Below are positions 23,256 through 29,331 of a DNA stretch of 29,333 nucleotides, piece by piece. The position numbers and the translations under genes were made by a program. The notes beneath the pieces are model-generated. The model was not told the origin of the DNA. It searched no databases and was given only the letters and a program-made list of their open reading frames with translations. The DNA comes from Promethearchaeota archaeon. GTDB taxonomy: Archaea > Asgardarchaeota > Lokiarchaeia > Sigyniarchaeales > SOKP01. Within the stretch, counting starts at the first letter, position 1, and the number at the start of each line of letters is the position of its first letter. Location: positions 4,447 to 33,779 of the forward strand of contig JBHLOC010000050.1 of the NCBI GenBank assembly GCA_048940925.1, in the 5' to 3' direction.

Positions 23256-25169
23256 ATGCGTGTGGAAAAACAACCAACTCGTCAAATTCCTGGTTTTATA
23301 TCTTATTTGGAGTTATTTTCATCGAAATATTTAGCATATTGTCTATTTTTTATAATCCCTCTTACTCTTGGTTTATTATCACTTACATTTAATACTTTAT
23401 TCCATGGATATTTTGATTTCTTTCACTTTATTCGATATTTTGTATTCTTTTTATTGCTGTCAGGATCTGGAACTGTATTTTCTATTCTTTTTTATTCTAA
23501 AAGATCTCCAATTTTACGATTACCTCCAAAAGGATGGGCATTACAAATTAATGTATATTTTTGTGCAATTATGGGATTAACATATATTTTTGGCAAAATA
23601 TTAGCAATAGTTCTGAATAATTCGACATTTCAAGAAGTCTTTTTCATACTAGGTGCTATTCTTTCTTATATTGTAGCATTTGTAGTTTATTTTTCGTTTA
23701 CTACGGTCGGTAGACCTGGCTACTTAATATTAGCTCTTGTTCAACCTGTGGTGGCTATTACTCTCTATAGCGTATATAAATATTGGTGGGATTATCCCCT
23801 GCCTAATGTGATCACTAACTCTCTTTTTTTCTTTATGAGAGCTATGATTTTTTTAGTAGTATGCGCTCTTCTATTTGCTATTCCTTACAGAAAAGGATTA
23901 TTTCAAGTTAGTAATGTGTATAAAGAAGCAACTGGAATGGGAGGATATCCTTTTATTAGAGCATTTATCCTTTCAATGATGACAGATGGCAATGATGAAT
24001 TAATTGAAGAATATTTCGATAGAGTGGGTATTAAATCAAAAGTAAAAATTCAATATTTATTCATTCGTGGTCTAGAATCTAATAAGATAAAAGGATTATT
24101 CATCATTCCTCATGTTCACTTTGGTCCTTTCAAAACTTGTGGTTCATCAGATTTACCTGAATATATTTATAAATCATTTGATTATATTCCAGGAACCACA
24201 GTTTATCATACAACAAATGACCATACTCAAAATTTAACAACTCAAAGATATGTTGAACAAATTACTAAGAGAATTAAACAAGATATTCATGAAGTACAAT
24301 CCATTAATAATACAATTTGGATTAAAGAAATAACAGATTTTAATCGAAAAATTTCAAACTCTGCAAAATTAATTGGTATGGAAGTTGCAAATGTCCCAAT
24401 AGTTTTCATAACGAGACATCCGCTCCCTTCTGACGATATTGAAGCAGACGTAGGAGAGGAAATCAGAGAAATAGCTATTGCTAATAATTACGAAGATATT
24501 GTTATTATCGACTCTCATAATGCTATCATTGGAGATGAAATCTTGATTAAAAAAAATTCTATTGAAGCTCAAGATTTAATTGATGTCTCAAGAAAGTACA
24601 TTAAAAGTAAGAAAATCCATAATAACCAAAAAGCTCAGATGTTATACGGCGTAGCGAAAGACATAATGGAAGAATATTCAGAAAAAGAGGGTATAGGCTT
24701 TGGCGGGATTGTTGTTCATTTATTTAGAAATGTCAATACTGATCAAAAAACAGCATTAATACATTTCGATAGTAATAATGCTTTTGTAGACATCCGATCA
24801 TATATTTTAAATATGTTACAAAATAGAGGAATAGAACGAGGAGAAATTACGACATCCGATTCTCACACTGTTGCAAGACAATTTTCAAATAGAGGATATT
24901 CACCTCTTGGGGATAAGATTAAAATTGATTTTATACTTGATAAAATATCACATTTGATTGATAAAGCTGAGAATGATTTAGAACCCGTAGAGTTTTATTA
25001 CAAAGAGTCACAAGAAGATGTAAAAATTTGGGGAGATCCCTCTTACTTTAATGCAATATTAGATACATTAAAAGAATGCATTAAGGTATCTCAAAGTTTA
25101 TTAACAATCAGTTTAATAGCTCCAACGTTCTTCTCATTAATTCTATTGATCTTTTTCTATACCATCTAA
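23256..25169 (+). CDS. DUF2070 family membrane protein (predicted ceramidase-superfamily lipid hydrolase)
   Basis: N-terminal TM bundle; HVHFGPF...GSS, H...H, IDSHN, DSNN, TSDSH motifs; C-terminal TM helix. Confidence 0.88.
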   Translation: MRVEKQPTRQIPGFISYLELFSSKYLAYCLFFIIPLTLGLLSLTFNTLFHGYFDFFHFIRYFVFFLLLSGSGTVFSILFYSKRSPILRLPPKGWALQINVYFCAIMGLTYIFGKILAIVLNNSTFQEVFFILGAILSYIVAFVVYFSFTTVGRPGYLILALVQPVVAITLYSVYKYWWDYPLPNVITNSLFFFMRAMIFLVVCALLFAIPYRKGLFQVSNVYKEATGMGGYPFIRAFILSMMTDGNDELIEEYFDRVGIKSKVKIQYLFIRGLESNKIKGLFIIPHVHFGPFKTCGSSDLPEYIYKSFDYIPGTTVYHTTNDHTQNLTTQRYVEQITKRIKQDIHEVQSINNTIWIKEITDFNRKISNSAKLIGMEVANVPIVFITRHPLPSDDIEADVGEEIREIAIANNYEDIVIIDSHNAIIGDEILIKKNSIEAQDLIDVSRKYIKSKKIHNNQKAQMLYGVAKDIMEEYSEKEGIGFGGIVVHLFRNVNTDQKTALIHFDSNNAFVDIRSYILNMLQNRGIERGEITTSDSHTVARQFSNRGYSPLGDKIKIDFILDKISHLIDKAENDLEPVEFYYKESQEDVKIWGDPSYFNAILDTLKECIKVSQSLLTISLIAPTFFSLILLIFFYTI

Positions 25170-25276
25170 ATGAACTTAAACATTCTTTACATATTTTTTT
25201 CAAAATTTATATAATTCCGTCTCTTAATTTTTACTTATACAAACAAATAAAAACAAAAATGAGATCAAGATAAGAA

Positions 25277-26002
25277 ATGAGTTTAACCTCCTTAGATTAT
25301 GTTAATGGGATATTCAGCATGATTTTTGTTTTTATATCAATAATTGTTGGTGTTATAATCCTTTCTAAGTATTTTAGGTATAGAGAGAGAACTTACCTCT
25401 ATATAGGGAGTACATGGATGTTTTTATCAAGTAGTTGGTGGCCATCCTGTATTTCCTTCTTGGTTGCGCTAAATAACGGTGTTGGAATAACTGCTGAGCT
25501 CTATTTTTTAATTGGAAATATTTTCGTGCCTCTTGCAATTGTACTTTGGCTTTTAGGATTCACAGAGTTTCTCTATTCTGAAAAACGCAAACAAATTCTA
25601 ATAATTACTGGAATTTATGGATTATTATATGAAATCTTATTCCTTGTATTCCTCTTCATTAACCCAGATATAATAGGGGAGTTAAATCCACCTGTTGACG
25701 TCAATTATCAATCTTTTACAATTTTCTTTCTTTTGTCTTTTCTAGCGATTGTAGTAATTACAGGAGTATTATTTGCTCGTTTGTCTTTACAATCTGAAGA
25801 TCCCGAAGTAAAACTAAAAGGAAAATTATTGATAGTTGCTTATATTGCTTTCACGATAGGTGCATTATTAGATTCTGCAATTCCTTTAAATGCAGTGCTT
25901 ATAATTTTTACACGATTAATATTAATTGCGAGTGCGCTTTTTTGGTACGGTGGGTTTATACTTCCAAGTTGGATGAGAAAAGTATTTCTAAAGAAAAATT
26001 AA
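25277..26002 (+). CDS. Stand-alone seven-TM membrane protein
   Basis: Seven hydrophobic segments with basic cytoplasmic loops and no soluble output domain. Confidence 0.8.
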   Translation: MSLTSLDYVNGIFSMIFVFISIIVGVIILSKYFRYRERTYLYIGSTWMFLSSSWWPSCISFLVALNNGVGITAELYFLIGNIFVPLAIVLWLLGFTEFLYSEKRKQILIITGIYGLLYEILFLVFLFINPDIIGELNPPVDVNYQSFTIFFLLSFLAIVVITGVLFARLSLQSEDPEVKLKGKLLIVAYIAFTIGALLDSAIPLNAVLIIFTRLILIASALFWYGGFILPSWMRKVFLKKN

Positions 26003-26200: not shown

Positions 26201-26758
26201 TTATATGAATTTTATGTTTTTATATCCTTTATCTTCAAGAATTTTAGATAATAAAACTCTAAATACTAAATCTACATTCTCTCCTGTTTTTGATGAACAT
26301 TCAATATATTTAAAGAATTTATATGAATTCATTATGTCTAACACTTCATCTTTTTTACAAACCCTTTGTTGTTCAAGGTCTAGTTTACTACCAACCATTA
26401 TGAGAGGTATGTATCTAATTGTCTTCCCAAATTCTGGAAGCCAATCCTTTAAAGCAATTAAACTTTCATAATTAGTAAGATCAAACATAAAAATTCCTCC
26501 AGCTGAACCTTGAGCATATTTTGATATCAGGAATCTAAACCTATTATGACCACCAAAATCCCATACTTGAAGCGTTATTGTTCCATTCTCTAACTCTAAG
26601 TATTTAATATGAATTGATACCCCAAGAGTCGCTTGTATATTGTCATGAAAAATATTTGTGATATAACGATCTGCCAATGTTGTCTTTCCAACTCCTTTAT
26701 CCCCGAAAATACTAATCTTGTATGATAATTTTAGGTCTTCTTTTCTAATTCCTTCCAT
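26201..26758 (-). CDS. Rab-like small GTPase
   Basis: G1 GDKGVGKT, G2 TLGV, G3 WDFGGH, G4 SKLD, G5 CSSK; RabF-like TLQVW, RFRFL, FMFDLT. Confidence 0.92.
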   Translation of the reverse strand: MEGIRKEDLKLSYKISIFGDKGVGKTTLADRYITNIFHDNIQATLGVSIHIKYLELENGTITLQVWDFGGHNRFRFLISKYAQGSAGGIFMFDLTNYESLIALKDWLPEFGKTIRYIPLIMVGSKLDLEQQRVCKKDEVLDIMNSYKFFKYIECSSKTGENVDLVFRVLLSKILEDKGYKNIKFI

Positions 26759-26837
26759 CTTTAAATAAATGTTATTTTATATATGAATATTAGGGTATAA
26801 GATCTAATTAAGTATACTCTATAATAAAACCTTATTC

Positions 26838-27371
26838 TTATATCCATTTAATCGCTTCATCATAATCCATAAATACAGAAACCTTATATGCCTTAAATCC
26901 ATTTATCCGAGACTTAGTTGCATCGTTAATTTTATTAAACAAGCTTGCTACTTTTTTCTATTTTTAGAATGTCAATGACATCCATTACTTATCCATTTTC
27001 TATTTTTAAGTAATACTATTAAGCACTTTCTTGGAAGGTTTCTAGTCTGATCTAATATTAATAATGAAATTCAAACATATATAATTTACAATATTGTATT
27101 TTCCCTTATTAATCTCATCGAATAACTCCATATAAAGATCATAAAAAGAATAATCTAATTTGTCTCGATCATCTTCATAAACATCTCCTTTCTAATCCAA
27201 AATTTCTTTATAATCTTCTTGAATTCGGTAAAATATCCTAGAATGAATAAATCTTGGTAATTTAGGATAATTTTCTAATACTTTTCAAATATGAGATTTA
27301 GGAGTAGAATGTTCATACTCCTTATTTTCGATAAAATCTCTTGATAATACTTAGATATTATCCTGATTCAT
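26838..27371 (-). pseudogene. Decayed gene(s); 3' end resembles a SpoIIAA/STAS-SEC14-like C-terminus
   Basis: One frame from ATG 27371 gives long protein-like stretches (KVLENYPKLPRFIHSRIFYRIQEDYKEILD; KGDVYEDDRDKLDYSFYDLYMELFDEINKG) cut by TAA, TGA and TAG, ending YKVSVFMDYDEAIKWI*. Confidence 0.5.
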
Positions 27372-27425
27372 ATTCTCTATTTATTCATTTTTTCTTAGTT
27401 AGTCAGTATAGATGTCAAAATTAAT

Positions 27426-27947
27426 ATGTTAAGTTCTGAAATAGATAAACTTGTGAAAATTTCGTTAGTCGGTTTTCCAGCAACAGGTAAAACAACTATG
27501 GCGAAACTTTTATCAGAGAATACAATAGATAGATTTTATATACCAACACATGGATTAGATTTAAAAACAGTAAAATTCGATGATTATTTCCTTAGAGTTT
27601 GGGATTTAGGTGGTCAATCTTCGTATCTTAAGACTTATTCTAAAGATTATTTATTAGGTTCAGATTTAATATTTGTAGTTACAGATTCAACACCACGAAA
27701 CGTGTTAAATTCAAGGGAACTCATAAACTATGCCTGTCATTTTGTAGGTGAAGAATGTCCAATTATAGCTATTGCCAATAAGCAAGATTTAAATGACGGA
27801 CGTATGAATGCAAAAAGAGTTGAAGATCTTTTACATGTAAAAACGTATGGGCTTACTGCAATCGATCCAGCAGAACGTTTGAAATTACTTAACATTATTA
27901 AAAAAGAATTAGAACAAATAGCAATTAGGAGGGGATTATTAGAATGA
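27426..27947 (+). CDS. Arf-related small GTPase
   Basis: G1 GFPATGKT, G2 PTHG, G3 WDLGGQ, G4 ANKQDL; spacing matches Arf PTIGFN...VWDVGGQ. Confidence 0.9.
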   Translation: MLSSEIDKLVKISLVGFPATGKTTMAKLLSENTIDRFYIPTHGLDLKTVKFDDYFLRVWDLGGQSSYLKTYSKDYLLGSDLIFVVTDSTPRNVLNSRELINYACHFVGEECPIIAIANKQDLNDGRMNAKRVEDLLHVKTYGLTAIDPAERLKLLNIIKKELEQIAIRRGLLE

Positions 27948-28501
27948 ATTTTAGTGAGAATGAATTATTTGGTGCCGCTTTAATTGGATTTGATATGATA
28001 GATGGACCATTTCTCAAATGGAAAAAAGAATATAATAATACCAAAGTTGGTGTAAATTTAGATGATTTCGCTATGAATTTTTATTTAGCATTTCGAGGTG
28101 GTAACCAAGGCTCTAAAAAACCACGAGCAATATTATATGACAAATTCTATATTGTGGCGTTTCCACAAGACTTAGAATTATGTTGCCTTTTCATGAAACC
28201 ACATGGAATTGATGAAAGTATTAAACAATTGAATCAAATTGCATCAAGAATTATCACAGAAATGGATAATGAAGAAATAGAGGCTAAAGAAACTGAGGAT
28301 TCTGATGTAGATACTGTGGAAGAAATTATGCGATTAATTCCAAATTTATTAAGTGAAACCAAGATGACTACTCCAGAATTAAGGCGATATTTTAAGCTAA
28401 GTAATTCTCAAATTTGGAAAATTATGTCAGAATTGGAAAATTCACAAAAAATCAAGAGAGCAGGAAAAAAAGGACGCTCCGTTTCTTGGACAGCTTGTTA
28501 A
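27944..28501 (+). CDS. Longin/uDENN-like domain + acidic linker + winged helix-turn-helix
   Basis: N-terminal AALIGFDMIDGPFLKW (FDxxxGP beta hairpin); linker DNEEIEAKETEDSDVD; C-terminal MTTPELRRYFKLSNSQIWKIMSELENSQKIKR...W. ATGA overlap with the GTPase gene. Confidence 0.65.
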   Translation: MNFSENELFGAALIGFDMIDGPFLKWKKEYNNTKVGVNLDDFAMNFYLAFRGGNQGSKKPRAILYDKFYIVAFPQDLELCCLFMKPHGIDESIKQLNQIASRIITEMDNEEIEAKETEDSDVDTVEEIMRLIPNLLSETKMTTPELRRYFKLSNSQIWKIMSELENSQKIKRAGKKGRSVSWTAC

Positions 28502-28521: not shown

Positions 28522-29331
28522 TTATCTTGTTCTATGAACCCAGTTTTTTAATTTTGTGAAGTATCGTGAAAACATAATATAACAGATATCAGGTAATTCC
28601 TTATCAAGATTATTCACTGTGATGTATCGGAGTATATGGTTAATTAAGAAAATCCCAATCAATTCTATATGATAGCTATTTATATTTTTAATTAAATTCT
28701 CCCCTGAGAATATAATATCTAAACCCGCACCTTTATGCCAAATAGTTTCTATAAAAATCTTCGGAAATACCTCTTTTTTTATTCTCCATCCTTCAGTAAG
28801 TTTCCATACTTTAGCTCCTAGAAAGGTCTCAAGATTTTCTTTATCCTCCTCTTTTAATAATTCGAAAGGTTTTGCCCTCTGTAATAGTACTTTTTTCATT
28901 AAATCAGATTTAGAATCATAACTCTGTTCAAATAGATCTTGGGTTTTCAATTTTCTTTCAATTAAATTCATTACTATATCAATATAAGTAGCACTATCTT
29001 CACCTGGAACCCAAGTAACCCTTTCTCCTGAAAAATAAAATTTAAATTCAGCTTCAATGTCATCTCCAAATTCATTACCAAAATAAGAGTAAGCCATATG
29101 AATATTTACTTCAGGAAACATATCAATAGTTATTGTCCAGTCTTCACTGAACCCAATGTTTTCAATCCTAGCTCCAAGATTTTCCTCAATAATTTGTTTT
29201 AATCGCTTTATATCAATTCCTGTAAATAGAGGAATTTTAGCATTACTAATATCTTCAAGCTCTTTTTCATGTGGTCCTCGGACACCAGTAGCATCAATCT
29301 GTCCTATTGTCCAATATTTTCTTTTTGACAT
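28522..29331 (-). CDS. Hypothetical protein with internal duplication (DUF3786-like fold)
   Basis: Halves align: LGARI...W.I..DMFPEVNI...FYFSGE and LGAKV...W.I..EVFPKIFI...IIFSGE. Start is at the window edge. Confidence 0.6.
   Translation of the reverse strand: MSKRKYWTIGQIDATGVRGPHEKELEDISNAKIPLFTGIDIKRLKQIIEENLGARIENIGFSEDWTITIDMFPEVNIHMAYSYFGNEFGDDIEAEFKFYFSGERVTWVPGEDSATYIDIVMNLIERKLKTQDLFEQSYDSKSDLMKKVLLQRAKPFELLKEEDKENLETFLGAKVWKLTEGWRIKKEVFPKIFIETIWHKGAGLDIIFSGENLIKNINSYHIELIGIFLINHILRYITVNNLDKELPDICYIMFSRYFTKLKNWVHRTR

Follow-up and report, generated by a model that had tools for sequence, protein, structure and literature searches.

Roadblock/longin domains are partners of small GTPases, as in MglB, Ragulator, TRAPP and Mon1-Ccz1. 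In GAP longins, an invariant GP hairpin is a characteristic feature (PMC12290439). The ArfL GTPases are an Asgard-specific group that is not directly related to eukaryotic Arf (bioRxiv 2024.02.28.582541), and no function of ArfL is reported in the literature searched. Among archaeal division genes, ftsZ and sepF are under CdrS control (PMC8406309), and the aCcr1-box has been likened to the CdrS motif by its authors (PMC9976878; PMC9976892). For Asgard archaea, a division role of FtsZ is inferred (PMC7617429). Here, we describe a two-gene operon of Lokiarchaeia that joins an ArfL GTPase to a partner with a longin-like and a winged-helix domain, and that shares an upstream array with ftsZ, sepF, RHH and Rag genes.

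The window, that is, the whole stretch of 29,333 nucleotides analysed, comes from a genome of Lokiarchaeia, in agreement with the Promethearchaeota names on its homologues. Both genes of the operon lie on the plus strand, with the limits given by the first-pass annotation: the GTPase at 27426-27947 (173 aa) and its partner at 27944-28501 (185 aa). The translational coupling proposed there is visible in the sequence as an ATGA start/stop overlap (27944-27947, plus strand). In addition, a Shine-Dalgarno sequence for the partner, AGGAGGGG, lies inside the 3' end of the GTPase gene (27927-27934, plus strand), coded by the final Arg-Arg-Gly codons. Four-nucleotide overlaps are ordinary by themselves, being found between 56 of the 2377 co-directional neighbours in this genome. 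Across the loci compared, the gap between GTPase and partner is at most 49 nt in all, the 4-nt overlap recurs in 31 of 55, and most have a purine-rich counterpart of the partner's Shine-Dalgarno sequence.

Upstream of the operon, the window contains genes for a DUF2070 membrane protein and a 7-TM-like protein (23256-26002). Many genera of the family have DUF2070 next to the operon, and only some have the 7-TM gene there; a general trio of 7-TM protein, GTPase and partner was rejected, since the 7-TM gene was found at only three of the other loci examined and DUF2070 often abuts the operon directly. Just upstream of the operon, 26201-27343 holds a minus-strand Rab-like GTPase gene, which is not adjacent to the operon in relatives, and a spacer of about 580 nt that lacks a long ORF and has no match among the proteins of this genome. 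On the other side, a convergent gene (28522-29331) encodes a 269-aa protein that matches nothing in Pfam or NCBIfam; this gene neighbours the pair at most loci within the family, not beyond.

The partner is present in 58 out of 61 relatives, with essentially one copy per genome, and is single-copy in nearly all Lokiarchaeia. At the level of the phylum, it occurs in all Lokiarchaeia families sampled and in seven other families; in three large families, 44, 21 and 19 genomes, which are incomplete, gave no match to the partner profile. A profile search of 1.8 billion proteins returned 28 hits, all of them family members or fragments except one repeat artefact. Synteny across Asgard genomes, one of the checks proposed for the pair, shows it to be conserved: the GTPase is encoded directly upstream of the partner in 75/75 loci (55/55 and 20/20) of Lokiarchaeia and three further families. 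Adjacent pairs are found in P. syntrophicum (QEE16608/QEE16607), L. ossiferum (UYP48675) and H. repetitus. Thirteen distant homologues, mostly from Jordarchaeia, consist of the N-terminal domain and a basic tail only and have no adjacent GTPase. In both Jordarchaeia genomes checked, a stand-alone GTPase of the same type is encoded elsewhere, so that the stand-alone GxP GTPase and the partner co-occur even where they are unlinked. A 262-aa fusion of GTPase and partner was discarded as an artefact of a 949-bp contig.

Several neighbours of the pair were seen in other genomes. In two families, 12 of 13 loci have, divergent from the operon, a gene for a CxxCxxCC-domain protein and after it a small Mrr-like gene (L043:5184-6545 and equivalents). 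The Mrr-like protein differs from a typical restriction enzyme in being conserved and present as a single copy. A gene combining a PF0610-like HTH with a zinc ribbon is divergent from the pair or from a lone partner in two distant families (L054:4861-5202 and L056:3491-3814). About 8 kb separate the pair from cdrS-ftsZ in one distant family (L326, G100 C5).

The GTPase (27426-27947) matches Pfam Arf (E 3.9e-18) and has intact G1-G4 motifs, namely G1 GFPATGKT, a Ras-like switch I YxPT, G3 WDLGGQ and G4 NKQD. Its P-loop (27471-27494, plus strand) contains Pro18 at the position of Ras Gly12, a residue invariant in 28 paired GTPases and mostly missing from longin-fused ArfL paralogues. The term Arf-like, as first applied to this protein, did not survive in the sense of kinship with Arf proper. 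Its MK-D1 orthologue, WP_147663483.1, assigned by synteny and tree, is listed as ArfL in a published tree-based table, and there is no conserved N-terminal amphipathic helix, the N-terminal extension being unconserved and only 3-7 residues long in several orthologues. The protein is an ArfL GTPase; it has no place in the clade of ArfR and eukaryotic Arf. Most other ArfL proteins seen carry an N-terminal domain of 105-150 aa that is longin-like in look (an Atlas lead of 0.83 only). The paired GTPases are stand-alone and form a GxP group in the tree, where support (92/75) is not firm and a long-branch Rag is drawn in. That they stand alone while most other ArfL proteins are fused to a longin-like domain indirectly supports the partner as a longin in trans. 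This genome has 101 GTPase-like hits. A further stand-alone ArfL-like GTPase is encoded immediately downstream of the gene for EF-1alpha (L092:1672-2151, G000 C76), with an array upstream and no usual start codon ahead of its P-loop.

The N-terminal domain of the partner (residues 1-107; 27944-28264, plus strand) is modelled as a truncated roadblock/longin fold with an FD-x3-GP hairpin and one long C-terminal helix. The GFDMIDGP hairpin lies at residues 15-22, as noticed earlier, and D17, G21, P22 and P60 are invariant in 65 aligned sequences. The order of elements suggested from hydrophobicity, beta-beta-alpha-beta-beta-beta-alpha followed by linker and winged helix, is also that of the model (pLDDT 81). 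When residues 1-113 were compared with known structures by VIA, the top 50 matches were all of roadblock, longin or profilin type (Z 5.5-8.3, rmsd 2.3-5.7 A over 65-84 residues), and Foldseek and Atlas searches agree. These Z values are middling, so the case for the fold rests on the unanimity of the match list. We therefore place the modelled domain, with its five-stranded antiparallel sheet and flanking helices, in the roadblock/longin/profilin superfamily; Pfam, NCBIfam and PDB sequence searches with it found no family. The long helix after the last strand is left unaligned, which suggests that it may be a dimer helix. A predicted complex of the GTPase (with GTP and Mg) and residues 1-113 of the partner scored 0.08 with a mark of 0.32 and was weighed neither way.

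Membership in the uDENN/NPRL2/FLCN family, which the first-pass annotation had suggested from the hairpin, is not borne out. Pfam and PDB sequence searches gave no hits, and the partner profile aligns with the FLCN-type GP longins of this same genome at the hairpin only (hhalign probability 2%, 26 columns). The C9orf72-SMCR8 match (Z 6.3) ranks below the roadblocks, an Atlas cluster bearing NPR2 reaches a TM-score of 0.54, and neither an NPRL2 nor an FLCN chain is among the top VIA rows. No cDENN/dDENN module follows the longin-like domain, the 185-aa partner continuing with linker and winged helix only. The GP motif at the beta1-beta2 hairpin is present, whereas the long beta4-beta5 loop with a universal arginine is replaced in the model by a two-residue turn at codon 75 (28166-28168, plus strand). 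The earlier remark that the PQDL turn has no Arg is correct for this genome, where codon 75 encodes Gln, and incorrect in general: Arg occupies position 75 in 109 of 182 homologues (60%) and Lys in 57 (31%), the other 16 having Gln, His, Glu, Asn, Asp or Val. The MK-D1 partner has Arg75. The conclusion that an NPRL2/FLCN-style arginine finger is not evident stands nonetheless, since the turn has two residues and Arg75 is not invariant. With its invariant GP and variable residue 75, the partner thus shares the motif and lacks a universal arginine finger. Eleven FLCN-type GP longins are encoded in this genome, most with the long ARG loop. Two with an Arg loop are G000 C48:17046-18095 and C34:55117-56160, the former fused to a Rab/Ras-like GTPase and a candidate GAP-GTPase fusion.

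An acidic, variable linker (residues 108-123; 28265-28312, plus strand) connects the two domains of the partner. As described from the sequence, it is rich in acidic residues (nine, against one basic), and it has the lowest pLDDT of the model. The remainder (residues 124-185; 28313-28501, plus strand) is a winged helix-turn-helix with 12 basic and 6 acidic residues. In agreement with the wHTH-like end first proposed, residues 121-185 match winged helices only (Z up to 10.4, rmsd about 2 A), and the model gives the three-helix bundle, beta wing and basic surface of a winged-helix domain. By sequence, the domain is similar to an Lrs14-like regulator (E 9e-4), and HTH families pass the cut-off in distant orthologues; the partner of this genome itself matches nothing in Pfam. 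Matches of the winged helix include the ArsR/MarR/DeoR type, and the top structural ones include the non-regulators Z-alpha, SelB and RPA2. Residues of the recognition helix and wing are near-invariant in 149 close homologues; between families, the recognition helix differs wholly. The C-terminal module itself varies with lineage, being a winged helix in Lokiarchaeia, an HhH-like domain in two families (called by eye, with no Pfam hit) and a run of Arg in Baldrarchaeia. No cognate site or operator was found for the winged helix, which probably binds DNA.

The first-pass annotation overlooked an upstream array, which connects the operon with ftsZ and sepF. This operator-like array of 11-bp periodicity occupies 27333-27372, with a core at 27344-27372 and a degenerate unit from 27333, and stops some 55 nt short of the GTPase start codon. 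Each unit consists of the dyad-symmetric R-T-A-W-T-A-Y and four variable bases. When 43 loci from beyond the genus were searched de novo by Gibbs sampling, 7 of 8 runs converged, with a score of 901 as against 423-433 for shuffled sequences, and the array is present in all 30 loci of the genus. With the resulting matrix, trained only on loci of the GTPase-partner operon, 27344-27370 of the window outscores every other site of the 4.8-Mb genome, at 25.6 bits. The array is not a general promoter element, since 0.9% of genes reach 10 bits, the threshold used for a site (a three-unit array). Genome-wide, the excess is modest when set against a fair permuted control (6 versus a permuted mean of 1.8 and a maximum of 4). 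GTPase genes as a class showed no general enrichment of upstream arrays (p 0.87), and no array was detected at the pair in Baldrarchaeia.

Genes for FtsZ, SepF, an RHH protein, a Rag GTPase, longins and an Mrr-like protein are among those with the next-best arrays. A three-unit array scoring at least 10 bits precedes 29/29 ftsZ, 28/29 longin and 27/29 Rag GTPase orthologues, as well as 25/30 members of the RHH family (down to 26% identity) and 14/29 Mrr-like genes; sepF mostly has a two-unit form (17/28). Other genes in the same loci, used as a control, had it in 1 of 196 cases. These counts are not independent, because the candidates were picked from one genome and the orthologues are kin. 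Conservation at ftsZ is higher in core columns (0.86) than in spacers (0.53), and a second ftsZ, unused in training, ranks 14 of 3889 genes. No array was found at Snf7 and actin genes. Among distant ftsZ loci, 11 of 30 have a site at p <=0.03, where about one is expected, and 19, MK-D1 included, have none detected; tubulin-like genes gave 0/9. The Rag (RagGtr) and Mrr-like genes are on other contigs here and lie within about 8 kb of the operon in 9 and 6, respectively, of 13 loci of two other families, MK-D1 included, where the neighbouring Rag is WP_147663476. A short histone-like ORF (G000 C33:593-796) has a weak array some 230 nt upstream.

An inverted repeat, CGTGAAA-N6-TTTCACG, was also noticed in about eight intergenic gaps of this genome (G000 C43:14346, C48:17015, C52:830, C58:8900, C3:52844, C34:56286, C40:146063 and C54:27778). 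In four of these gaps it comes straight after the 11-bp array; two of the four lie between convergent genes, where a role in a promoter is not apparent. The repeat could be the site of a second factor, a small RNA or a chromosome-positioning site.

Several lines of evidence bear on what binds the array. The unit RTAWTAY is the core of the aCcr1-box (compared with PMC9976878). The array precedes ftsZ in families without a detected partner (f9, f12, f17 and f22) and partner genes without a winged helix, and it is unchanged where the recognition helix differs. On these grounds, an RHH protein is the likelier binder, and probably the actual one; this genome has 11 RHH genes, several of them CdrS-type by eye. 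In other Asgard families, 2 of 9 cdrS-ftsZ pairs are directly preceded by a significant array. The same observations make it highly improbable that the winged helix itself occupies the array, with the partner as a GTPase-gated master regulator of ftsZ, sepF and its own operon, although the best array of the genome stands before this very operon and tandem winged helices can bind 11-bp repeats, as PhoB does. DNA upstream of 27426, first put forward as an EMSA target for the partner, is not supported in that role, as the conserved element there is probably bound by an RHH protein and not by this winged helix.

Our preferred reading, which we hold tentatively, is a GTPase-to-DNA switch whose genes are expressed alongside those for division; in it, the state of ArfL would be read by the longin-like domain and would control the engagement of DNA by the winged helix. 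A CdrS/aCcr1-type RHH protein on the array would switch on the operon together with ftsZ and sepF, and we infer a cell-cycle timing of the operon. The ArfL GTPase would cycle between GTP and GDP. The longin-like domain of the partner, an in-trans version of what is fused in cis in most other ArfL proteins, would bind a single nucleotide state of ArfL, with its long helix probably making it a dimer; this binding would control the winged helix, a putative second-tier regulator. Direct contact between GTPase and partner seems slightly favoured, and nucleotide control of DNA binding is a possibility to which we give distinctly less credence. That the two proteins are co-regulated and physically independent would suit the unlinked genes of Jordarchaeia, but it is very improbable in view of the tight coupling in every locus of several families, a fold typical of GTPase partners and the co-occurrence of the two proteins even when unlinked. 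A spatial switch is unlikely, in our estimation: much as in MglA/MglB, a longin-like dimer would regulate or anchor the GTPase, and the basic C-terminus would tether the complex to the nucleoid or an anionic surface, helping to place or time the FtsZ ring. The interchangeable C-termini (winged helix, HhH-like domain, poly-Arg or basic helix) suggest non-specific tethering, and the wholly different recognition helices between families, the MglB and roadblock matches and the array common to the operon, ftsZ and sepF fit as well. However, near-invariant surface residues of the recognition helix within the main family, and matches of ArsR/MarR/DeoR type, speak against it. A pre-eukaryotic GAP similar to GATOR1/FLCN, in which the GP longin would stimulate hydrolysis on ArfL or Rag via Arg75 and the winged helix would be structural, is decidedly unlikely. 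It can call on the invariant hairpin of GAP longins, the Arg at residue 75 in most homologues and RagGtr, which has the array too and lies near the pair in MK-D1; yet 40% of homologues lack that Arg, the turn has two residues where FLCN-type longins encoded by the same genome have a long ARG loop, a DENN module is absent and C9orf72-SMCR8 is outranked by roadblocks. Moreover, a Pro occupies the Ras-12 position of the GTPase, where in Ras it blocks GAP stimulation.

Asgard genomes encode about 100 small GTPases each, with almost no assigned roles. The array picks out a handful of small GTPases as co-regulated with ftsZ and sepF, which gives ArfL a first functional context and yields a short list of testable parts in the cultured species P. 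syntrophicum and L. ossiferum (accessions above). If the GTPase also gates the winged helix, the pair would be a direct GTPase-to-DNA switch made from eukaryotic-signature parts. The broadest form of the proposal is an Asgard division regulon of CdrS/aCcr1 type that includes ArfL, Rag, longins and this pair as a transcription factor under direct control of a Ras-superfamily GTPase; signalling by GTPases would then have been tied to cytokinesis before the first eukaryotes. Taken whole, this proposal is somewhat unlikely. Literature searches, incomplete in coverage, found no paper on the GTPase-partner pair or on an Asgard regulon of such kind. The parts are of known kinds, and their combination and the link to division genes appear to be new.

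Among described systems, MglA/MglB operons likewise pair a small GTPase with a roadblock-superfamily partner in two genes (MglB Z 7.4). However, they differ in gene order, GTPase class and partner topology, and MglB has no DNA-binding domain. The GTPase resembles other ArfL proteins (bioRxiv 2024.02.28.582541) in its ArfL-listed orthologue, Arf-like WDxGGQ and Asgard-only distribution; the paired clade is stand-alone with an invariant P-loop Pro, whereas most others carry an N-terminal longin-like domain. With the GP-motif GAP longins (NPRL2/GATOR1, FLCN, SMCR8/C9orf72 and Asgard relatives; PMC12290439; bioRxiv 2020.10.19.343400), the partner has in common a longin-type order of strands and helices and an F-D-x3-G-P hairpin between the first two strands. 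In contrast to them, it lacks the long ARG loop, the invariant Arg, the last longin helix and the DENN module, its profile similarity is confined to the hairpin, and a tail of nucleic-acid-binding type is fused to it. One-component regulators of the CodY and CRP type also consist of a sensor domain, a long helix and a winged helix, and were weak Foldseek matches of the whole model (E ~1e-3). The likeness is one of architecture only (TM-scores about 0.26), and the input here would be a GTPase protein and not a small ligand. Finally, as with CdrS of Halobacteria (PMC8406309, PMC7439475) and the aCcr1-box of Sulfolobales (PMC9976878, PMC9976892), a dyad core (RTAWTAY/GTATTA), a box of GTA-W-TAC type, stands upstream of ftsZ, sepF and RHH genes, well upstream of the start as CdrS sites do, in a genome that encodes CdrS-like RHH proteins. 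What sets the Asgard array apart is that two to three units are phased at 11 bp, that its binder is a predicted one, and that genes for ArfL and Rag GTPases and for longin proteins are among those marked.
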